Assembly: GCA_043819075.1 (NCBI GenBank)
Contig: JBDRFE010000035.1
Coordinates: 1 to 15,374 of the forward strand
Direction of reading: 5' to 3'
Length of the DNA stretch: 15,374 nucleotides
Source: an archaeon
GTDB taxonomy: Archaea; Iainarchaeota; Iainarchaeia; Iainarchaeales; 1-14-0-10-31-34
Position numbers and translations under genes: made by a program. This document shows, in pieces, positions 1,793 through 15,374 of this stretch (within the stretch, counting starts at the first letter, position 1; each line of letters starts with the position of its first letter). The notes beneath the pieces were generated by a model. That model was given only the letters and a program-made list of their open reading frames with translations. It was not told the DNA's origin and searched no databases.

Positions 1793-1855
1793 TTAGTCAT
1801 TTTTTGTCTTGCTTTGGTCACTAAAAATAATAATCCCCTGAAACAAGTGTTTGTA

Positions 1856-3073
1856 ATGGAAAAACAAAAAGTTGTTTTGGCTTACAGCGGGGGGCTTGAC
1901 ACTTCAGTAATATTGAAATGGCTTGTAAATAAAGGATATGAAGTAATTGCATTTACTGCTGATGTGGGCCAAAAAGAGGATTTTAATTCTGTCAAGGAAA
2001 AGGCGTTGGACTGCGGTGCAACAAAATTTTACTTGAAAGATTTAAGGAAAGAGTTTGTTGAAAAATTTATTTTTAGTGCGCTGAAGGCAAATGCAGTGTA
2101 TGAGGGAAAATATTTGCTGGGAACAGCTCTTGCCAGGCCTCTTATTGCAAAAAAGCAGGTTGAAATAGCAAAAAAAGAAAAAACAAATATTCTAGCTCAT
2201 GGCTGCACTGGAAAGGGAAATGATCAGATTAGGTTTGAACTGGCTTGGATGATGTTCCTGCCAGAAGCAGAAATAATCAGCCCGTGGAAAGAAAAGGAAT
2301 GGCTTGAACAGTTTAAGGGAAGAAGTGATTTGATTAATTACGCGGAAAAGAATGGGATTCCGGTTAATGCAACATTAGAAAAACCTTATAGCATTGATGA
2401 AAACTTGATGCATGTAAGCTATGAATCAGGGGTGTTGGAGGATGCATCAATAGAACCTGAACCAGAAATGTTCAAGTTCACTGTATCACCAAAAAACGCG
2501 CCGCATAAGGAAACGAAAATCTTTATAGAATTTAATACGGGAATTCCAGTAAAAGTAACTAATTTGAGTAAAAGTGAGGAAGTGAAAGGCTCGCTTAAAT
2601 TATTTGAATACTTGAACAAATTGGGTTCAGAAAACGGTGTTGGGAGAGCTGATATTGTGGAAAACCGTTTTGTTGGAATAAAATCCAGGGGAGTGTATGA
2701 AACTCCTGCAGCAACAATTCTCTTGAAAGCACACCAGGATTTGGAAAGCATTACATTGGATAAGGAAGTAATGCATTTGAAAGAATTGATTTCTCCGATG
2801 ATTTCCAAAATAATCTACAATGGTTTTTGGTTTGCCCCTGAAATGGATTTTTTGATGGCCGCAGTGAACAAAAGCCAGGAAAACGTTTCAGGAAAAGTTT
2901 ACATTACGTTATACAAAGGAAACGTAATTGTTACCGGAAGAGAATCAGAAAACTCTTTATACAATCAGGCAGTATCTAGCATGGAAAAAGACGGGGGATT
3001 CAATCAAGCAAACGCAAAAGGTTTCATTGAAGTAATTGGATTGCGTTTTAAGCTGCAGGGGATGAAAAAATGA
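1856..3073 (+). CDS. argG: Argininosuccinate synthase
   Basis: [55 protein letters not shown]. Start placed at ATG 1856 (MEKQKVV), where homologues begin, rather than at TTG 1814. Confidence 0.98.
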
Positions 3074-4269
3074 AGTTATGGCAAAATAAAAGTAAACTGA
3101 ACAAAAAAATAGAAGAATTTACTGTGGGAAACGATTTCCTGCTTGACAAAAAACTGGTGAAATATGACTGTATTGCATCAATTGCTCATGCGAAAATGTT
3201 AAAAAAAATAAAGGTACTGAACAAAAAAGAATGCAGCAAAATAATTGAAGCATTAAATGAAATAATAAAGCTTGATTCAAAAGGAAAATTTTTAATTAAA
3301 CTGGATGATGAAGACTGCCATACAGCAATAGAAAACCATCTTGTTAAAAAATTAGGGAGCACTGGAAAAAAAATTCATTTTGCAAGGTCAAGAAACGACC
3401 AAGTCTTGACTGCGTTAAGGTTGTATTGCAGGAAAGAAACTGAAGAAATAATTGAATTAATTGAAGAACTAATAAAAGAATTAGTTTTGTTTAAAGGAAA
3501 ATACGGAGAAACTAAAATGCCTGGTTATACTCACATGAGGAAAGCCATGCCATCTTCTGTTGGGCTGTGGAGCGAGTCTTTTATTGAATCAATGAAAGAC
3601 AACAAAAAACTAACTGAATTTGTCATGGAACAGTTAAACCAGAATCCTTTAGGCACAGGAGCTGGTTATGGAGTGCCAAATAAAATTGACAGAAAACTGA
3701 CAACAGAATTGCTGGGATTCAAAAAAATACAGAAAAACCCAATTTATGTTCAGAACAGCAGGGGAAAACTTGAATCTTCTTTAATTCATGCATTAAACCA
3801 GACAATGTTTGATTTAAACAAAATGGCTTCAGATTTAATTTTGTTCAGTATGGAAGAATTCGGTTACTTTAGGTTAGCTGCAGAAATTTGCACTGGAAGT
3901 TCCATGATGCCTCACAAGAAAAATCCAGATGCGCTTGAACTGTTAAGAGCAAAATACCATTACTGCTTATCCTGCGAGTTTCAGCTAAAAACTTTAATAA
4001 GCAATCTTCCATCTGGCTATAACAGGGATTTGCAGTTAACTAAAGAGCCATTGATTAAAGCCATTGAAACAGCAAAAGAGAGCCTGAAAATCATGAAGCT
4101 TATTCTGAAAAAAGTTGAAGTTAATGAGCATGAATGCCTTAAAGGAATAACAAAAGAAATGTATTCCACAAAAAAAGCGATTGAACTGGCAAGAAAAGGA
4201 ATTCCGTTCAGGGAAGCACACTCAAAAATTTCTGGAGAGATTTTTTATGCTGCTGCAAAAAACAATTAG
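3070..4269 (+). CDS. argH: Argininosuccinate lyase (short, about 400-aa form)
   Basis: [30 protein letters not shown] signature, [20 protein letters not shown] overlap with the argG stop. Confidence 0.97.
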
Positions 4270-4272
4270 TAA

Positions 4273-4305
4273 TTTAAAGGTTTTTGCACATAAATTTTTT
4301 TTTTT
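4273..4305 (+). promoter_or_regulatory. Possible internal carAB promoter (TTTAAA) followed by a T11 tract that may terminate argGH
   Basis: TTTAAA at 4273-4278 lies about 30 nt upstream of ATG 4307, and 11 Ts occupy 4295-4305. This is the only non-overlapping junction in the cluster. Confidence 0.45.
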
Positions 4306-4306
4306 A

Positions 4307-5353
4307 ATGAACCAAGTAAAAAGCCAGAGAGTTGAACTGATTTTAGAGGATGGAACTGTTTTTTCCGGTAAAAGTTTTGGCTTTCCTGAATCTGTTTCAG
4401 GCGAAGTGGTTTTTTCAACTGGAATGACAGGCTACACTGAAAGCCTGACTGACCCAAGCTATTGCGGGCAAATTTTAGTCCTAACTTACCCTTTAATTGG
4501 AAATTACGGTGTTCCAAACAAAAAAGAATTTGAGTCAAAAAGAATTCAGGTAAAGGGATTGATTGCGGGGGATTATTCTTTTGAGTTTTCCCACTGGAGC
4601 GCAGAAAAAAGTTTGGCTGAATGGTTAAAAGAGTTTAAGGTTCCTGCATTGACTGGAATTGATACAAGGGCTTTAACGCAAAAGCTCAGAAGCAATGGAA
4701 CAATGCTTGGAAAAATAGTCATTGGAAAAGACACTGAATTCTTTGACCCAAACAAGATTAACTTGGTTGAAAAAGTTTCCTGTGAAAAAAAGCATTGGAT
4801 TGGAAAAGGAAACAAAAAAATTGCCTTAGTTGATTTCGGCGCAAAACAAGGAATAATAAGGAGCTTAACAAAAAGAAAAATCAAAGTTTTGAGAGTTCCG
4901 TGGAATTCTAGCTTGAAGGAACTTGACGTTGACGGATTTGTTTTAAGCAACGGCCCCGGAGACCCTGCTTTGCTGAACCAACCAATTGAAAACATCAAAG
5001 AATTATTAAAAGAAGAAAGGCCTGTTTTTGGAATCTGTTTAGGAAACCAGTTACTTGGCCGTGCAGCAGGAATAAATACTTTTAAGTTAAAGTTCGGGCA
5101 CAGAAGCCAGAACCAGCCATGCATTAATTTAGAAACAAAAAACTGTTTTATTACCTCTCAAAATCATGGATTTGCATTAGAAAATAAAATGAAAAACAAT
5201 TTTATTAAATGGTTTGAGAACGCAAACGACAAAACAGTTGAAGGAATAAAACATAAAACCAAGCCGTTTTTTTCTGTCCAGTTCCATCCAGAAGCCTGTC
5301 CTGGCCCGACTGACACAGAGTTTTTGTTTGATGAATTCAGGGAATTATTATGA
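4307..5353 (+). CDS. carA: Carbamoyl-phosphate synthase small (glutaminase) subunit
   Basis: LILEDGT, GEVVFSTGMTGY, LTDPSY, LSNGPGDP, GICLG (catalytic Cys), SQNHGF, QFHPEA (His-Glu). ATG 4307 avoids overlap with argH. Confidence 0.97.
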   Translation: MNQVKSQRVELILEDGTVFSGKSFGFPESVSGEVVFSTGMTGYTESLTDPSYCGQILVLTYPLIGNYGVPNKKEFESKRIQVKGLIAGDYSFEFSHWSAEKSLAEWLKEFKVPALTGIDTRALTQKLRSNGTMLGKIVIGKDTEFFDPNKINLVEKVSCEKKHWIGKGNKKIALVDFGAKQGIIRSLTKRKIKVLRVPWNSSLKELDVDGFVLSNGPGDPALLNQPIENIKELLKEERPVFGICLGNQLLGRAAGINTFKLKFGHRSQNQPCINLETKNCFITSQNHGFALENKMKNNFIKWFENANDKTVEGIKHKTKPFFSVQFHPEACPGPTDTEFLFDEFRELL

Positions 5354-8300
5354 AAAAAGTAGTTTTTGGTAAAGCTTTTTCCAAAAAAGGTTTTTTTGAT
5401 AAAACTTTGAAAAAAGTTTTGTTGTTGGGAAGCGGTGCACTGAAAATCGGTGAAGCAGGGGAATTTGATTTTTCGGGTTCGCAGGCAATAAAAGCATTAA
5501 AAGAAGAGGGAATTAAAGTTGTTTTAATTAACCCGAATATTGCTACAATCCAGACCTCGGAAAATTTTGCAGACAAAGTTTACTTTCTGCCTTTGACTCC
5601 TTTTTTTGTTGAAAAAGTAATTAAAAAAGAAAAGCCTGATGCAATCCTGCTGTCTTTTGGAGGGCAGACTGCATTAAACTGCGGATTAGAATTAGAAAAA
5701 AAAGGCGTGCTAAAAAAATTCAAAGTAAAAGTTTTAGGAACATCAATTAAAACAATTGAAGAAACAGAGGACAGAAAAAAATTCACTAAAAAATTAAATG
5801 AAATCAAAGTCAAGACACCTGAATCAACTGCAGTTACAAATATTTCAGACGGAATAAAAGCAGCAAAAAAAATCGGTTTTCCTGTAATGCTTAGAGCAGG
5901 TTTTGCTTTAGGAGGAAAAGGAAGCGGAATAGCCTTGAATGCAGAAGAACTCAGGAAAAAATTAGGCAGTGCTTTTTCTTTTTCAGAACAGGTTTTAATT
6001 GAAAAAAGCCTTAAAGGATTCAAGGAAATAGAATACGAAGTTGTAAGAGACAAATTCAATAACTGCATTACAGTCTGCAACATGGAAAACTTGGATCCAT
6101 TAGGAATTCATACAGGGGAATCAATTGTTGTTGCCCCAAGCCAGACTTTAACAAACAAAGAATACCATTTGTTGAGAGAAATTTCAATCAAAACCATAAA
6201 ACATTTAGGGATTATAGGGGAATGCAATATCCAGTTTGCATTGAACCCAAAAAAAGAAGAAGTTTATGTAATTGAAGTTAACGCAAGGCTTTCAAGAAGC
6301 AGCGCGCTTGCATCAAAAGCAACCGGCTATCCACTTGCATTCATTGCAGCAAAATTAGCATTAGGCTATTCCCTGACTGAATTAGAGAATTCAATTACAA
6401 AAAAAACCATTGCATGCTTTGAGCCAGCACTGGATTACTGCGTGGTGAAAATGCCGAGATGGGACTTAAAGAAATTCAGGAACGCTGAAACAAAAATCAA
6501 TTCACAGATGAAATCAGTCGGCGAAGTAATGGCAATCGGAAGGAAATTCGAGGAAGCACTGCAAAAGGCAGTGAGAATGGCTGACACAGGATTCAACGGA
6601 CTGGATTCAGGTTTTTTCAGGACAGAAAAAGAGATTAAAACAGAATTAGCTGAACCTTCGCCTGAAAGAATTCACGCGGTTGCTTCAGCGCTTGAAAAAA
6701 ATTTTTCAGTTGAAGAAATACATGAACTTACAAAAATAGACAAATGGTTTTTATTCAAAATAAAAAACATTATTGAAACAGAAAAAAAGCTGGCAAAACA
6801 AAAAAATGGCTTAACAAAAGAATTATTGCTTGAAGCAAAACAAAACGGCTTCAGCGACAGGCAGATTGCTTTTCTGCTTAAAACAACTGAAGAAAAAATA
6901 AGGGAACAGAGAAAAAAGAACAAAATCCACCCTGTAATAAAACAGATTGACACTCTTGCGGCAGAATACCCTGCAAAAACAAATTATTTATATCTTACAT
7001 TTAACGGCGAAAAAGATGACGTTAAGGCATTAGAAAAAAATATTATTGTTTTGGGCGGAGGGCCTTACAGGATTGGCTCAAGCGTTGAATTTGACTGGTG
7101 CTGTGTCAATACATTAAAGGCTTTAAGGAAAAACGGCTTCAAAACAATAATGATTAACTGCAATCCAGAAACAGTTTCAACTGACTACGATGAATCAGAC
7201 AAGCTTTTCTTTGAAGAATTGTCTCTGGAAACAGTGCTGGAAATTTACGGGAAAGAAAAAAGCCTTGGAATAATAATTTCAATGGGCGGCCAGACACCAA
7301 ATAATCTGGCATTAAAGCTGGATGAAAATAAAGTGAAAATTTTAGGCACTAAAGTGAAAAGCATTGATTTAGCTGAAAACAGGAACAAGTTTTCTGCTTT
7401 AATTGATTCCCTTGGAGTCAACCAGCCTGAATGGAGGGAATTAACTTCCTTGAATAAAGCAAGCGAGTTTGCAAAAACAGTTGGCTTTCCTGTTCTTGTA
7501 AGGCCAAGCTATGTTTTAAGCGGTTCAGGAATGGCTGTTGTATTCAACGAAAAAGAATTAAAGGGTTATCTGGAAAAAAACAGGATTTCAAAAGAGCATC
7601 CGACAGTAATAAGCAAGTTCATCATTAATGCAAGGGAAATTGAAATTGACGGAGTGGCAAAAAATGGGAAACTGATAATTTATGCTATTACAGAACACGT
7701 TGAAAACGCCGGCATTCATTCAGGCGACGCAACAATTGTACTTCCTGCACAAAAAATTTACATTGAAACAATTAACAGGATTAAATCGATTACAAAACAG
7801 ATTGCAGCAAAACTTGAGATTACCGGGCCGTTTAACATCCAGTTTATTGCAAAAGACAATGAAATAAAAGTAATTGAATGCAATCTCCGCGCGTCAAGAA
7901 GCTTTCCTTTCTGCTCTAAAGTAATCGGAAAAAATTTCATTGATTATTCTGTTAAGGCAATTTTAGGCAAGCCAATTGAAAAAACAGTTGACTATTTTGG
8001 GAAACTAAATTATGTTGGAGTCAAGGCACCACAGTTTTCTTTTTCAAGATTAAGCGGCGCAGACCCTATTTCCGGAGTGGAAATGGCTTCAACCGGAGAA
8101 GTTGCATGCCTAGGAAAAGACCTTTATGATGCTTTTCTGAAAGCAATGCTTGCAGCAAACAATTCACTTCCAAAAAAAAACATTCTTGTTTCAATCGGCG
8201 GAGAAGAAAACAAATACGTTTTGCTTAAGCCAATCCAAAAACTCGTGAAAAAAGGCTTCAGTCTTTTTGCAACAAAAAACACTCACAGGTTTTTGAAATT

Positions 8301-8616
8301 TCACGGAATTAAAAGCAGGAAACTGTTTAAGGTGCAGGAAAAAAAAGAGCCAAATGTTTTAACTTACCTGACAGGAAAAAAAATTGATTTTATTATTAAT
8401 GTTCCAGACAAATATCATTCAAAGGAATGGGACCCGGATTATTCTTTGAGAAGGACTGCAACAGACTTTAATGTGCCGTTGATTACAAACCTTGAATTAA
8501 CAAAACTGTTTGTCAAATCACTGGCAGAAAAAAATATTGATGAACTGGAAATCAAGAGCTGGGATGAATACTTGAAAAACGGTTCAAACGGAAAACAGGT
8601 TTATTCAGCCAAATAA
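5350..8616 (+). CDS. carB: Carbamoyl-phosphate synthase large subunit
   Basis: GSGALKIGEAGEFDFSG, GIHTGES, IEVNARLSRSSALASKATGYP, second half GGGPYRIGSSVEFD, RPSYVLSG, GIHSGD, C-terminal MGS domain. ATGA overlap with carA. Confidence 0.98.
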   Translation: MKKVVFGKAFSKKGFFDKTLKKVLLLGSGALKIGEAGEFDFSGSQAIKALKEEGIKVVLINPNIATIQTSENFADKVYFLPLTPFFVEKVIKKEKPDAILLSFGGQTALNCGLELEKKGVLKKFKVKVLGTSIKTIEETEDRKKFTKKLNEIKVKTPESTAVTNISDGIKAAKKIGFPVMLRAGFALGGKGSGIALNAEELRKKLGSAFSFSEQVLIEKSLKGFKEIEYEVVRDKFNNCITVCNMENLDPLGIHTGESIVVAPSQTLTNKEYHLLREISIKTIKHLGIIGECNIQFALNPKKEEVYVIEVNARLSRSSALASKATGYPLAFIAAKLALGYSLTELENSITKKTIACFEPALDYCVVKMPRWDLKKFRNAETKINSQMKSVGEVMAIGRKFEEALQKAVRMADTGFNGLDSGFFRTEKEIKTELAEPSPERIHAVASALEKNFSVEEIHELTKIDKWFLFKIKNIIETEKKLAKQKNGLTKELLLEAKQNGFSDRQIAFLLKTTEEKIREQRKKNKIHPVIKQIDTLAAEYPAKTNYLYLTFNGEKDDVKALEKNIIVLGGGPYRIGSSVEFDWCCVNTLKALRKNGFKTIMINCNPETVSTDYDESDKLFFEELSLETVLEIYGKEKSLGIIISMGGQTPNNLALKLDENKVKILGTKVKSIDLAENRNKFSALIDSLGVNQPEWRELTSLNKASEFAKTVGFPVLVRPSYVLSGSGMAVVFNEKELKGYLEKNRISKEHPTVISKFIINAREIEIDGVAKNGKLIIYAITEHVENAGIHSGDATIVLPAQKIYIETINRIKSITKQIAAKLEITGPFNIQFIAKDNEIKVIECNLRASRSFPFCSKVIGKNFIDYSVKAILGKPIEKTVDYFGKLNYVGVKAPQFSFSRLSGADPISGVEMASTGEVACLGKDLYDAFLKAMLAANNSLPKKNILVSIGGEENKYVLLKPIQKLVKKGFSLFATKNTHRFLKFHGIKSRKLFKVQEKKEPNVLTYLTGKKIDFIINVPDKYHSKEWDPDYSLRRTATDFNVPLITNLELTKLFVKSLAEKNIDELEIKSWDEYLKNGSNGKQVYSAK

Positions 8617-11245: not shown

Positions 11246-11360
11246 AAAAAAAAGAGCGACAGGAATAAAAACATTAAGCCTGAATTTGGTTTTGGAAAAA
11301 GTTGTTTGGGCTCAGTTTTGGGTTAGCCCGATTCCGTACGGGTACTCCGGAATATGTCAA
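11246..11360 (-). other. Candidate structured RNA (5' leader or sRNA) ending in a U8 tract
   Basis: GC-enriched island with adjacent hairpins AUUCCG/CGGAAU (11353-11331) and GGGCU/AGCCC (11329-11308), then CAGG/CCUG and T8 at 11253-11246. TATA TTTATAA at 11390-11384. Confidence 0.4.
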
Positions 11361-11390
11361 GGCATTTCATTTCATTCAATGCCTTATAAA
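11359..11390 (-). promoter_or_regulatory. TATA box overlapped by inverted repeat AAGGCATT-N11-AATGCCTT
   Basis: Perfect 8-bp arms at 11359-11366 and 11378-11385; minus-strand TTTATAA at 11390-11384. Confidence 0.55.
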
Positions 11391-11451
11391 TATATTAATG
11401 CTCTGTCGAAGATAGAGCGATATATTTCGTCACAAACCGGCGAAACGGTTT

Positions 11452-11580
11452 TTGGACTCAGTGTTGAGTTAATTCATCATGCCGTCTGCTCACGGCAGTA
11501 GAGTGCACAACTTTCAGTTGAGCTTGCTCGCCCTGCTCGCGTTAAACCGGTCAGAAGGTGTTAACATCGTCATAGTCCAA
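11452..11580 (-). ncRNA. Box C/D guide sRNA with a 70-nt insertion between D' and C'
   Basis: Minus strand: UUGGAC-U-[C AUGACGA]-12 nt-[D' CUGA]-CCG...CGG-C-[C' AUGAUGA]-12 nt-[D CUGA]-GUCCAA. It has a 6-bp terminal stem, two K-turns with 3-nt bulges, and two canonical 12-nt spacers. Confidence 0.88.
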
Positions 11581-11619: not shown

Positions 11620-13788
11620 TCAGATTTTTGCGTTTTTTAGGAGAAGAGAATTAGAAACAACTGAAACACTGCTTAAAGCCATTGCACCGCCTGCAATTAC
11701 AGGAGAAAGAAGGATTCCAAAAGAATAATATAAAACTCCTGCAGCAATCGGTATTCCTAATACATTATATACCAAAGCCCAGAACAAATTCTGTTTTATT
11801 TTGTTTAATGTTTTTTTTCCAAGAGTTATTGCAGAAACAACATCAAGCGGATTGCTTTTCATTAAAACAATATTGCCTGCTTCAATTGCAATATCAGAGC
11901 CCTGAGACATTGCAATTCCTAAATCAGCCTGGGCTAAAGCAGGCGCATCATTTATTCCGTCGCCGACCATTGCAACAATTTTTCCCTCTTGCTGGAGTTT
12001 TTTAATGTAATCAGCTTTCTGGCCCGGCAGCACTTCTGCAAACACGTTTTCAATGCCAAGGCTTTTTGCAATTGCATTTGCTGTTCTATTGTTGTCGCCT
12101 GAAATCATCCACACCTGAATTTTCATTTGATTCAGTTTTTCAACTGCGTTCTTGCTTGACTCTCTTACAACATCAGCTACAGCAATTCCGCCTAAAACCT
12201 TGTTTTTTGAAAAAACAAGCATCACTGTTTTTCCTTTGGCTTCTAATTCAGAAACCTGAAGATTAATTTTTTCAAGAGAATGAATTTCTTTTGCATAATT
12301 AATGCTTCCTAAAAAATATTCTTTGCCTTTAATTTTGCCTTGAATCCCTTTTCCCGGAACTGCTTTAAATAAATCAACTTTTGAAAAAAAAAGTTTTTTT
12401 GCTTTAGCGCCTGCAACAACAGCTTCTGCCAGAGGGTGCTCTGAATTTTTTTCAAGTGAAGCTGAAATTGAAAGAATTTCATTTTCTTTTAGTTCAGAAA
12501 CAGAAAACACGTCAGTTAATTTTGGCTTGCCTATTGTCAGAGTTCCTGTTTTGTCAAAAACCACTGCATTAATTTTATGGCTTAATTCAAGGGCTTCAGC
12601 ATTTTTTATCAGAATTCCGTTTTCCGCTCCCTTGCCTGTGCCAACCATTATTGCAGTAGGGGTTGCCAGCCCTAAAGCACAAGGGCATGCAATAACAAGA
12701 ACTGAAACTGATGCAACCAAAGCAAAAGAAAAGCCTTCATTAAAGACAATCAGCCAAGCCAAAAAAGTAATTAATGCAATAACAAGTATTGCTGGAACAA
12801 AAACTGAACTAACTTTATCTGCAAACCTTTGGATATCTGCTTTAGAGCCCTGTGCTTCTTCAACAAGCTTTATTATCTGGGCTAAAACCGTTTCTTCCCC
12901 TATTTTTGTTGCCTTGAATTTTATAAAGCCATTGAAATTCATTGTGCCGGCAAAAACTTTGTCATTAACTTTTTTTTCAACTGCAATGCTTTCTCCTGTA
13001 AGCATGCTTTCATTAATTGAAGTGTTTCCAAAAACAATTATTCCGTCAGTCGGAATCTGCGCCCCAGGCTTTACTAAAATCAAATCATTTTCAGCAATTT
13101 CTGTTGCAGGAATTAAAACTTCTTTTCCGTTCCTTTCAACTAAAGCAGTTTTAGGGGAAAGATTCATCAGTTTTTTTATTGCCTCGCTTGTCCTGCCTTT
13201 TGCCAGGGCTTCCAGGTATTTTCCAAGCAAAACCAGGGTTATAAGAATTGCAGCGGTTTCAAAAAATTGTTCTGAAACAAAACCAAACAATGCACTCACA
13301 CTATAAAAATATGCAGCGCTTGTGCCAAGCGCAATTAAAGTATCCATTGAAGCGGTTTTATTCCTAAGGGAACTCCATGCGCCAAGATAAAACCTTTTGC
13401 CTGCAATAAACTGCACTGGAGTGCTTAAAATAAAAAGAAGCCAGAGCCTGAAAGGAAAATCCATTAAAATCATTCCAAGAAAAAACACAGGAATTGTGAG
13501 CATTGTGCTGAAAACCAGGGTTTTTTTTAGGGAAGAAATTTCTTTTTCCCTTAATTTTCTTTCCCTTTCCAAATCAAATCCAACGATTGCCTTATAGCCT
13601 AACTTTGTTATTATTTCAGTTATTTTTTCCAAAGCAATTTTTTTTTCATCGAATTCAACAAAAGCTTTTCCTGCGGCAAAATTAACATTGCTTTTTTTTA
13701 TTCCGCTGGCTTCAGAAAGTTTTCTCTGAATTAACGCAGAGCAAGAAGAACAATGCATTCCTTCAATAATTAATTCTGTTTTAGCCAT
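11620..13788 (-). CDS. copA: Cu(I)-translocating P1B-1 ATPase
   Basis: N-terminal HMA GMHCSSC, TGES, IACPCALGLATP, DKTGTLT, SEHPL, GDGINDAP, YN and MALSS Cu(I) ligands. SD AGGTGA at 13798-13793. Confidence 0.96.
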   Translation of the reverse strand: MAKTELIIEGMHCSSCSALIQRKLSEASGIKKSNVNFAAGKAFVEFDEKKIALEKITEIITKLGYKAIVGFDLERERKLREKEISSLKKTLVFSTMLTIPVFFLGMILMDFPFRLWLLFILSTPVQFIAGKRFYLGAWSSLRNKTASMDTLIALGTSAAYFYSVSALFGFVSEQFFETAAILITLVLLGKYLEALAKGRTSEAIKKLMNLSPKTALVERNGKEVLIPATEIAENDLILVKPGAQIPTDGIIVFGNTSINESMLTGESIAVEKKVNDKVFAGTMNFNGFIKFKATKIGEETVLAQIIKLVEEAQGSKADIQRFADKVSSVFVPAILVIALITFLAWLIVFNEGFSFALVASVSVLVIACPCALGLATPTAIMVGTGKGAENGILIKNAEALELSHKINAVVFDKTGTLTIGKPKLTDVFSVSELKENEILSISASLEKNSEHPLAEAVVAGAKAKKLFFSKVDLFKAVPGKGIQGKIKGKEYFLGSINYAKEIHSLEKINLQVSELEAKGKTVMLVFSKNKVLGGIAVADVVRESSKNAVEKLNQMKIQVWMISGDNNRTANAIAKSLGIENVFAEVLPGQKADYIKKLQQEGKIVAMVGDGINDAPALAQADLGIAMSQGSDIAIEAGNIVLMKSNPLDVVSAITLGKKTLNKIKQNLFWALVYNVLGIPIAAGVLYYSFGILLSPVIAGGAMALSSVSVVSNSLLLKNAKI

Positions 13789-13854: not shown

Positions 13855-14310
13855 TCACTCAAACCTGTATCTTCCTTTATCTAAATCAGATTTTTTTATA
13901 ACAATGCTGTCACCGACAACTTTGTTTGGCAGAAAACCAGGCCAGCAGCCTCCTCCATTTTTATTTTCTGTTCCAAGCCCGTCAATCGGATATTTATTCC
14001 CGCAGTTATTGCACACCATTTCATTTCCGTTCTGGCTGTACCCTTTTTTTGAAGCAAAACAGACATCGCATGCATCAAAAGCTGTTTTAATGCTGCCATC
14101 GCTTGCCTTTACCGCAAAAAACCTTATTGTAGTTCCATTGGATTCAAATTCAAACCATTTCGCATTCTCGCTTATGCTTGAAAGAGGAATTGAAATTGAA
14201 TCAGTCGGAACCTGTTGTGCAGCAGCAACAGAAAAATTTCCTGTTGAATCAGAAACACAGCCTGCAAAAACAAGCACTGCAAAAAGAAAAAGAAATAAAA
14301 TGAATTTCAT
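13855..14310 (-). CDS. DUF2318-family Cys-rich (putative Fe-S/metal) lipoprotein
   Basis: Lipobox VFAG-C, then FDACDVC, GYSQNGNEMVCNNCG and GGCWP. ATGA overlap with the upstream gene. Confidence 0.85.
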   Translation of the reverse strand: MKFILFLFLFAVLVFAGCVSDSTGNFSVAAAQQVPTDSISIPLSSISENAKWFEFESNGTTIRFFAVKASDGSIKTAFDACDVCFASKKGYSQNGNEMVCNNCGNKYPIDGLGTENKNGGGCWPGFLPNKVVGDSIVIKKSDLDKGRYRFE

Positions 14311-15056
14311 TTATTCACTTCCTTTGCAAGCTCGCTTTCAATTAACTGTTCAAATGCACTGAATGACTGGGCTCCAACCAATTTTGTGTTGTTCACAAAA
14401 AAAGTCGGGGTTGCTGTTACACCAGATTTTTGGCCGTCAGCAAAATCTTTTTGCACTTCTGAAGCCATTGCACTTGAATCAAGGCATTGATTAAACTTTT
14501 CTTGGTTAAGCCCTAATTGCACAGCATATTGTTTCAATGACACAATATCAATTGCTGTTTGGTTATCAAATATTTTATTGTGCATTTCCCAGTATTTTCC
14601 TTGTTCTCCAGCACATTCTGCTGCTTCAGCTGCTTTTTGTGCATTCTCGTGGAAACCCAAAGGGAAATCCCTGTAAACAAGTTTTACTTTTCCTGAATCA
14701 ATGTATTTTTGCTGTATTGACGGCAGGGTTTCTGCATAAAAACGCTCACAAAAAGGGCACTGATAATCTGAAAATTCAATGATTGTCACTGGCGCGTTTT
14801 CAGCACCTTTAACTGTATCGTCATCTGCACTCGCATTAACAACTGGTGCAGGCTGGTTTACTGTTAGCTGATTATTCACTGAAGGAGCTGTTTCACTGAT
14901 ATCTGAACCAACTCCATTTGTGTTTGCATTAGATAATGCAATTTGTGCAGTAATAACATCAAGTTTTTGATTTAGTTCTGCGTTAGAAAATGCATTCACG
15001 AAAGTAAGAACTAACATTACTCCCAGCATAATATAAATCAAAGTTTGTTTTTCCAT
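14307..15056 (-). CDS. Membrane-anchored DsbA/BdbD-like thiol-disulfide oxidoreductase
   Basis: N-terminal TM, GAENAPVTIIEFSDYQCPFC, YRDFPL, cis-Pro loop ATPTFFVN. SD AGGAGG upstream. Confidence 0.92.
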   Translation of the reverse strand: MEKQTLIYIMLGVMLVLTFVNAFSNAELNQKLDVITAQIALSNANTNGVGSDISETAPSVNNQLTVNQPAPVVNASADDDTVKGAENAPVTIIEFSDYQCPFCERFYAETLPSIQQKYIDSGKVKLVYRDFPLGFHENAQKAAEAAECAGEQGKYWEMHNKIFDNQTAIDIVSLKQYAVQLGLNQEKFNQCLDSSAMASEVQKDFADGQKSGVTATPTFFVNNTKLVGAQSFSAFEQLIESELAKEVNK

Positions 15057-15070
15057 TTTTTATTCCTCCT

Positions 15071-15374
15071 TTAAATTCCGCCGCAGCCGCAGCCAGATGC
15101 ATTTCCCCCGCAAGACCCTGCCTTTGGGGAAACAGCTGAAAAAGCGCTGGCTTCATTTGCTTCAGTTGTATTGCCTGAACTTTCATTTGATTCTGAAATC
15201 AGTTCTGCAGGGTAAGTTTTAAAGACTTCAAGCAAAAGAATTTTTTCTTTGGATGTTTTTTCCGGGGCAAAAGCCACATCAAATAAATTAGGCGACCTGA
15301 ACCTTACTCCGGTTACCCCGTCAATTTTTTTGAGCTCGCCTGAAATCAATGAGGCGTGGCCGGAACAAGGAATA
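15071..15374 (-). CDS. HMA-like metal-binding protein with CxxH motif and Cys/Gly tail (5' end outside the window)
   Basis: The frame is open to the window edge and reads IPCSGHASLISGELKKIDGVTGV...FDVAFAPEKTSKEKIL (HMA-like), ending GSCGGNASGCGCGGI. Confidence 0.8.
   Translation of the reverse strand, partial: IPCSGHASLISGELKKIDGVTGVRFRSPNLFDVAFAPEKTSKEKILLLEVFKTYPAELISESNESSGNTTEANEASAFSAVSPKAGSCGGNASGCGCGGI

Follow-up and report, generated by a model that had tools for sequence, protein, structure and literature searches.

The window, a stretch of 15,374 nt of DNA, belongs to an archaeal genome (G000) of 1.24 Mb that is 91% complete, and carries on its minus strand a box C/D sRNA gene (11452..11580) whose 129-nt precursor is predicted to measure 73 nt once spliced. 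A gene for a heavy-metal P-type ATPase with HMA and E1-E2 ATPase domains (11620..13788, minus strand) terminates, with its stop codon, 39 nt upstream of the RNA on the same strand, and further upstream a group of FtrD-like, DsbA-like thioredoxin and small Cys-rich reading frames (13855-15349, minus strand) makes up a probable copper cluster. On the plus strand, the stretch 1814-8616 holds what we take, by sequence, to be argG-, argH-, carA- and carB-like genes, a biosynthetic block notable for a DPANN genome. The 3' end of the C/D RNA is abutted by further hairpin-repeat modules (11389..11451), which are multi-copy and are replaced by other sequence in DNA run X3. The 129 nt themselves are present without any listed difference in contigs from runs X1 and X3 (two studies, one of which may be the window's own source); contigs of two RNA runs leave the RNA uncovered, which weighs neither way on its expression. 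A copy of the D guide with one mismatch, followed by a box D, lies in a small hairpin without a C box at 11312-11325 (minus strand), and is possibly a relic half gene, though the pattern is within the range of chance.

Read along the minus strand, the RNA consists of a 6-bp terminal stem (11580-11575 paired with 11457-11452), box C (11567..11573), a D' guide (11555..11566), box D' (11551..11554), a D'-C' loop formed by a 70-nt insert (11550-11481), box C' (11474..11480), a D guide (11462..11473) and box D (11458..11461). The first-pass annotation had placed the boxes, both guides, the terminal stem and the insert exactly here, and all the insert helices it listed lie within the minimum-energy fold of the RNA (-38.1 kcal/mol, z -2.2, with 5 of 200 shuffles as stable). 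The four-box pattern has two matches across the genome's 1.24 Mb and no match in any of ten Markov shuffles. With boxes C, D', C' and D in k-turn geometry, a terminal stem, and guides of 10-12 nt that are complementary to the 23S rRNA of relatives with a Watson-Crick pair at N+5, the locus is, on all sequence criteria, a member of the archaeal C/D guide family. A match to an existing Rfam family, which the first-pass annotation had named as an outcome against novelty, is not seen for the 129-nt stretch at E<=5.

The target region of the host's own 23S rRNA is unassembled, as its two pieces miss it, and the targets were accordingly assessed on the 23S rRNA of nine relatives. For the D' guide, the A-loop is the top-ranking site in seven of the nine, six of them with 11 contiguous pairs and one weaker, and the other two carry a G at the target position; the nucleotide at N+5 coincides with the base that opens the loop of the A-loop hairpin, as aligned in Rfam. 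The D guide forms 10 contiguous pairs, one of them G-U, with 23S rRNA 29 nt downstream of the A-loop site, and its best site lies at this distance in all nine. An equally good match was reached by 0 of 300 shuffles of the D' guide and by 5 of 300 of the D guide. Adding 29 places the N+5 nucleotide of the D guide at what would be G2581 in E. coli numbering, if no indel is assumed between the two. The first A-loop uridine corresponds to E. coli U2552 (PMC4644070). We thus predict a C/D sRNA that guides 2'-O-methylation at two sites in the catalytic centre of the ribosome, U2552 and G2581. In one relative (G013), the 23S rRNA has a G at the position of 2552, and the guide carries a compensating C at N+5; the loci L028 (G013) and L030 (G037) both display this replacement of the nearly universal first A-loop uridine by G.

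The rule applied by the first-pass annotation, which counts to the fifth nucleotide, yielded the correct target nucleotides for both guides. Its suggestion of non-canonical targets did not survive: the targets are canonical rRNA sites, and a scan of the whole genome with both guides gives scattered one-mismatch matches only, with poor sites in the 16S rRNA. The search for complements that it had proposed was therefore unconvincing in the host's own genome, because the relevant part of the 23S rRNA is missing from the assembly, and succeeded in the 23S rRNA of the relatives. Ordinary rRNA targets were among the outcomes it had itself named as counting against novelty. Among the sites predicted in the PMC4644070 supplement, G2581 is absent (position 2855 by our own offset, 0 occurrences), and the one paper that a literature search for Gm2581 brought up concerns B. 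subtilis, with its own numbering. The guide family, with its predicted Gm2581, is missing from Rfam, to which it would be a routine addition. The three proteins whose genes the annotation had proposed to confirm, fibrillarin and Nop5 (in adjacent genes) and L7Ae, are all encoded in the host genome. Matches to the FtsJ family in 61 genomes are weak and partial, the best reaching 52 bits and all others staying below 33; we infer that RlmE is absent from the 61 genomes searched and that the guide stands in for it, as was likewise predicted for Pyrococcus abyssi sR25 (PMC2584109).

The RNA or its guides were found by blastn in 19 of 60 relatives, and pattern searches gave 33 and 28 loci, some of them by chance. 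The titled homologous records are mostly from Iainarchaeum or Diapherotrites, with four titled as Micrarchaeota (three) or bacteria. The D'-C' loop is 36 nt or shorter in 51 of 63 distinct guides of two families and spans 61-85 nt in the remaining 12, in a set enriched for long loops because these were sought. Across the phylum, the long-loop 23S guide is present in 6 of 215 genomes and a long-loop 16S guide in 5 of 215, after one pattern match in each search (G082 and G122, respectively) was dropped as no long-loop guide; the 16S guide motif itself occurs in 123 of 215. Four matches of a further pattern search (G047, G104, G187 and G198) were dropped as not being C/D RNAs. The insert is patchy even within one genus (two of six genomes of g1). 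In the host genome, the guide has an uninterrupted paralogue with a 15-nt loop (C20:1835-1895, plus strand), and an uninterrupted 16S guide (C27:5792-5847, plus strand) has sites at 1015 and 1359 of the host's own 16S rRNA, the latter of which we take to be probably C1402; together with the interrupted gene, these are the only three C/D RNAs in the genome that pass the filter. Since the loop is short in most homologues and an uninterrupted paralogue is present in the same genome, we do not regard the insert as a domain specific to the guide, and the extra domain for a protein dock or sensor envisaged by the first-pass annotation loses its ground, all the more as the insert recurs outside C/D RNAs.

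Circularly permuted 23S guides with swapped halves occur at L006 (G044), L021 (G042), L069, L070, L083 and L101 (G080), and the permuted guide of G080 carries the insert at its other junction. At L162-L174, in family f2 and its neighbours, a guide of the A-loop type and a guide of the 16S C1402 type are combined in one composite C/D RNA. The 16S-guide motif is amplified locally, with 11 copies in G052:C54 and 9 copies in G151, which suggests mobile or tandemly duplicated C/D genes.

What is the nature of the insert? Its body is a GC-rich mosaic hairpin repeat composed of three modules. Module 1 (11526..11540, minus strand) contains two GCGAGC units that are able to pair via tandem G.A pairs; module 2 (11504..11524, minus strand) is the apical hairpin, with four more copies in the genome at up to three mismatches, one of them within a tRNA-Pro intron; module 3 (11480..11497, minus strand) is a 6-bp palindrome. 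Modules 1 and 3 have no near copies in the host genome at the mismatch limits used. A covariance model of eight inserts (R1) matches 20 of 141 genomes. We examined 34 matches (30 of the 49 listed, plus four weak ones from the host genome), of which eight lie in C/D loops and the rest in RNase P RNA, within tRNA genes or next to them, or in intergenic DNA; the RNase P RNA copies, confirmed by Rfam, come from three genomes (L108, L111, after the conserved ACAGAA segment, and L112, in the 5' part). All three modules covary as hairpins in the examined copies, and the tandem-GA hairpin is compensated by G-C in 14 and by A-U in 8 of 22 cases, one of the eight being a spurious register. The claim of a structured insert thus holds, in that its helices covary in homologues. 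The model was built on the RNAalifold fold, and it scores divergent C/D inserts poorly, at 15-21 bits, so that their homology to this insert rests on likeness of motif.

Clusters of GC-rich hairpins number 34 in the host genome against 0, 0 and 1 in three shuffles, and 11 of the 34 lie within 150 nt of a tRNA, in zones that make up 1% of the genome. In twelve tRNA calls of the host genome, long introns of 76-185 nt are packed with hairpin repeats rich in GC or in AT, which is also the reason for several wrong anticodon calls. At G000:C2:38005-38094, a tRNA-Leu(UAA) reported by ARAGORN resembles, by eye, a tRNA-Lys(CUU) with a 15-nt canonical intron. Judged by these sequences, the insert is a member of a dispersed family of GC-rich hairpin repeats proper to the lineage. 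With its multi-copy short palindromes in mosaic clusters, the repeat behaves like a BIME-type element, but a cognate transposase was not found. The Y1 transposase was rejected as its mobiliser in the host, as PF01797 (RAYT/Y1 transposase) has no match in this 91% complete genome; the domain occurs in 41 of 141 relatives, and in 7 of the 20 genomes with a match to the repeat model. The repeat shares with REP/BIME mosaics, with Rickettsia palindromic elements (PMC3733652, PMC1779305) and with the MITE-like C/D elements of Pyrobaculum calidifontis (PMC6009581) the short GC-rich palindromic modules, the mosaic clustering, the restriction to a lineage and the occurrence within genes. Unlike REP/BIME as described there, it is archaeal, is concentrated at tRNAs and in structural RNAs, and lacks a detectable Y1 transposase in its host; in P. 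calidifontis, as that source presents it, the sRNA lies within the element, whereas here the element lies within the sRNA (PMC6009581).

Other identities for the insert were considered and rejected. A viral carrier was dismissed since the 35 exact matches of a 15-nt motif in viral contigs are accompanied by neither the first hairpin nor a C box and model scores do not exceed 23 bits, as befits chance. Descent from a tRNA-Lys anticodon arm, an idea derived from the 16S guide insert of G155, found no backing in ten other matches of the pattern in G155, none of which is a tRNA and one of which is an intergenic AT-rich repeat. A likeness of the apical hairpin to domain V of group II introns fails on the lower stem, which is too short, and on the lack of an Rfam match. 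An H/ACA pocket is contradicted by alignments that show, by eye, variable letters on the pocket side and no conserved ANA box, and an internal k-turn drawn with the GA pairs is disrupted in several copies that show compensation in the alternative tandem-GA hairpin.

At the base of the insert, the first-pass annotation had overlooked a motif of the bulge-helix-bulge (BHB) type. We call such a motif strict (hBHBh') when two 3-nt bulges on opposite strands surround a 4-bp helix with further helices on both sides, in the orientation found in pre-tRNA, and relaxed when it comprises a helix h, then a 3' bulge of 3 nt and a fully paired 4-bp helix. A strict hBHBh' begins on the first base after box D' (shuffle P 0.004). 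The 3-bp stem closing the C'/D' k-turn (5' arm 11548..11550, paired with 11484-11482) doubles as the exon-side helix h; it is followed by the central 4-bp helix (5' strand 11544..11547, paired with 11491-11488, two of the four pairs being G-U), by 3-nt bulges on the 5' strand (11541..11543) and on the 3' strand (11485..11487), and by a 3-bp intron-side helix h' formed by the first three nucleotides of module 1 with 11494-11492, all on the minus strand. EndA, the tRNA splicing endonuclease, cuts after the second nucleotide of each bulge. Cuts are hence predicted between 11542 and 11541 and between 11486 and 11485; they would remove 56 nt (11486..11541, minus strand) and leave a guide of 73 nt with a 3-bp stem and a 7-nt loop.

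The motif is not confined to this RNA. In a fixed-register test on 12 long loops, six were strict, four relaxed and two failed, against a null of shuffled loop interiors of 0.03-0.10 per sequence for the helix and 0.003-0.024 for the strict form; the register is set by the k-turn, but was picked after a first look at the motif. In a set of 12 rows, to which G031 was added and from which G157 was omitted, and in which the stem offset of the G155 23S guide was set by hand, a 4-bp helix follows a 3' bulge of 3 nt in 11 of 12, and follows bulges of 0, 1, 2, 4, 5 or 6 nt in none. Of six distinct 3' helix strands (GAGC, GCUU, GGCC, GGCG, GACG and GAAG), every one pairs with the 5' strand of its own insert, for which the exact permutation probability is 1/720. 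Counting all long-loop C/D genes, drawn from host families f1, f8, f13, f16, f20, f24 and f32 and one metagenome contig, 12 of 15 fit the BHB geometry with two guide families and six central helices among them, although most of these rows are homologous and hence not independent, and the count includes G074, truncated by a contig end and judged by eye. The misfits are G031 with three of four pairs, G015 with a 4-nt bulge and otherwise perfect helices, found after the BHB idea had formed, and G157 (61 nt) without any such motif. The 16S guide of G155 carries a strict BHB in an unrelated AT-rich insert. Within the repeat family, a BHB-like motif is seen in 9 of 10 C/D copies and in 7 of 26 non-C/D copies, under the same loose window. 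The host's own tRNA introns are at least relaxed BHB in 11 of 12 cases and strict in 4 of 12, and the 51 short-loop guides would represent, as judged by loop length, intronless homologues with a contiguous loop. The locus fits a BHB intron on all sequence criteria, and its cleavage is predicted.

The reading we favour, and consider reasonably likely, is that the D'-C' loop of this guide is interrupted by a 56-nt BHB intron, whose removal by splicing yields an ordinary guide of 73 nt. The thermodynamics of the insert complicates this picture. The BHB conformer lies 2.7 kcal/mol above the minimum-energy fold, which keeps a 6x6 internal loop open without the central BHB helix. Module 3 is mutually exclusive with both the k-turn stem and the BHB, and RNAalifold favours the fold with this 3' palindrome. 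On an alignment of eight sequences, a three-hairpin fold that destroys the BHB has 93.8% of cells paired, a covariation of 0.40 and seven double-change pairs, and the rod with the BHB has 91.1%, 0.33 and seven; none of the double changes in the rod lies in the central helix, whose own double changes come from divergent inserts outside this alignment. The two folds are 0.4-6 kcal/mol apart.

This closeness in energy, together with covariation in support of both folds, could indicate a functional switch, in which a retained insert would toggle between the rod, with the k-turn closed and the guide active, and the three hairpins, with the k-turn stem open, or else would dock a protein. The sharing of the module by two guide families and a circularly permuted copy would also agree with such a role. 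We nevertheless find it improbable: the insert has the patchy distribution within g1 described above and is absent from the paralogue and from the 16S guide of the host, no conserved single-stranded ligand motif specific to the C/D copies was seen, and the three-hairpin fold is the fold of the free repeat, so that its covariation may be inherited.

Another reading, which we regard as rather unlikely, though less so than a switch, is that the repeat is a tolerated passenger. It would remain in the mature 129-nt RNA, selection having kept only the rod that closes the C'/D' k-turn, and the BHB-like geometry would be a by-product of the conserved loop length of the repeat. The absence of the central helix from the minimum-energy fold speaks in its favour, as does the k-turn stem, which 9 of 10 inserts preserve at 3-5 bp. 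The repeat moreover sits, unspliced to all appearance and with no clear BHB, in the RNase P RNA of the three genomes, and a BHB is lacking from one guide loop of 61 nt and from loops of 27-36 nt, the latter showing that the RNP tolerates some extra hairpin. Mere tolerance leaves unexplained, however, the joint change of the helix strands, the sole fit of a 3-nt bulge and the recurrence of the same strict motif in an unrelated insert. Furthermore, EndA recognises structure (PMC4731332, PMC7714728), and by these sources a strict BHB would be cut whenever it formed.

How could splicing of the guide proceed? EndA and the ligase RtcB are both encoded in the host genome. Read-through or transcription of its own would give the 129-nt precursor, in which L7Ae bound to the C'/D' k-turn would favour the closing stem over the 3' palindrome, and this stem would serve at the same time as the exon helix of the BHB. 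EndA would then cut both bulges and RtcB would join the halves into the 73-nt guide, whose stem and 7-nt loop would resemble a spliced anticodon arm, with the excised 56-nt RNA probably circular. The guide would assemble with Nop5 and fibrillarin and methylate U2552 and G2581. The body of the intron would be repeat filler, as in the tRNA introns of the host, with no functional domain. Expression, cleavage, ligation and methylation of the RNA are thus all steps that we infer from the sequence. The RtcB gene of the host (G000:C45:2616-5432, L147) is itself interrupted, in frame, by an insert of some 500 aa, the junctions of which are, by their motifs, presumably intein-like. In G023:C1:136827 and G055:C22:827-1564, the 16S guide gene lies 0.5-4 kb from endA. 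EndA of five relatives is a single domain in a frame of 171-179 aa, the size of the alpha4 type. Enzymes of this type are listed as narrow, cleaving relaxed BHB poorly (PMC6379350), which makes the five relaxed BHB cases uncertain; in DPANN archaea, alpha4 EndA has been associated with more disrupted tRNAs (PMC5829648).

The intact paralogue in the host implies that the interrupted copy need not work and that selection on it is relaxed. With a further intact paralogue in G008, and with degenerate and half copies of these guides common, one might suppose that the interrupted gene is a redundant or damaged copy, cut by EndA without religation or simply silent, the paralogue on C20 doing the work. 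We give this a slim chance, slimmer even than that of a switch, as no box or guide is damaged, strain X3 carries the 129 nt unchanged, and in G046, G080 and G155 (67-84% complete) no copy besides the interrupted one was detected. Splicing of the interrupted gene into a working guide remains our preferred account.

Known systems provide partial precedents. Double guides to the A-loop include P. abyssi sR25, directed at U2669, equivalent to E. coli U2552 (PMC2584109), and Sulfolobus acidocaldarius sR7 and Nanoarchaeum equitans sR10, directed at alignment position U2826 (PMC4644070). The present RNA shares with them, as far as these sources describe them, four boxes, 12-nt guides, an N+5 nucleotide on the first A-loop uridine and a second guide to a nearby site in domain V; it differs in the 70-nt insert with a BHB in its D'-C' loop and in its second target. 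Archaeal BHB introns are described in pre-tRNA, pre-rRNA, cbf5 mRNA and the HVO_1309 5' UTR (PMC7714728, PMC6379350), and the permuted SRP RNA of Thermoproteus has BHB-processed termini (PMC4731332). The hBHBh' arrangement, the 3-nt bulges, the 4-bp helix, the predicted exon product of a stem with a 7-nt loop and the presence of EndA and RtcB are common to those introns and to our case, the difference from the cases in these sources being that the host is a C/D guide RNA and that splicing is predicted from sequence. A C/D guide is also tied to EndA processing in the pre-tRNA-Trp intron of Haloferax volcanii and in Pyrococcus sR50 (PMC7994747); the arrangement reported there is the reverse, the guide being the intron, whereas here it is a pair of exons. 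The literature names tRNA, rRNA, two mRNA cases and SRP termini as substrates of EndA, and also describes C/D guides within tRNA introns (PMC7714728, PMC7994747, PMC4731332, PMC6125680, PMC12558985, PMC4090602, PMC6009581). An intron inside a C/D guide was not found in full-text searches of largely open-access literature.

We tentatively propose, as a possibility short of an even chance, that palindromic repeats of Iainarchaeota become true introns in guide RNAs by building a BHB to which both their own 3' hairpin loop and the k-turn stem contribute, that the tRNA splicing machinery removes them, and that they spread among C/D genes of different targets, including the 23S guide, its permuted form and the 16S guide. 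If true, a C/D sRNA would here contain a BHB intron for the first time, EndA would gain a new host class among its substrates, and the modification of the rRNA A-loop would be tied to tRNA splicing in a lineage seemingly without RlmE; C/D searches limited by size would miss such interrupted genes. Since the body of the intron is recognisable as a dispersed repeat, and alleles without the intron are present within the same genus and within this genome, the question of how BHB introns originate can be put to the test here, and Iainarchaeota would offer a living model of their emergence from selfish repeats.
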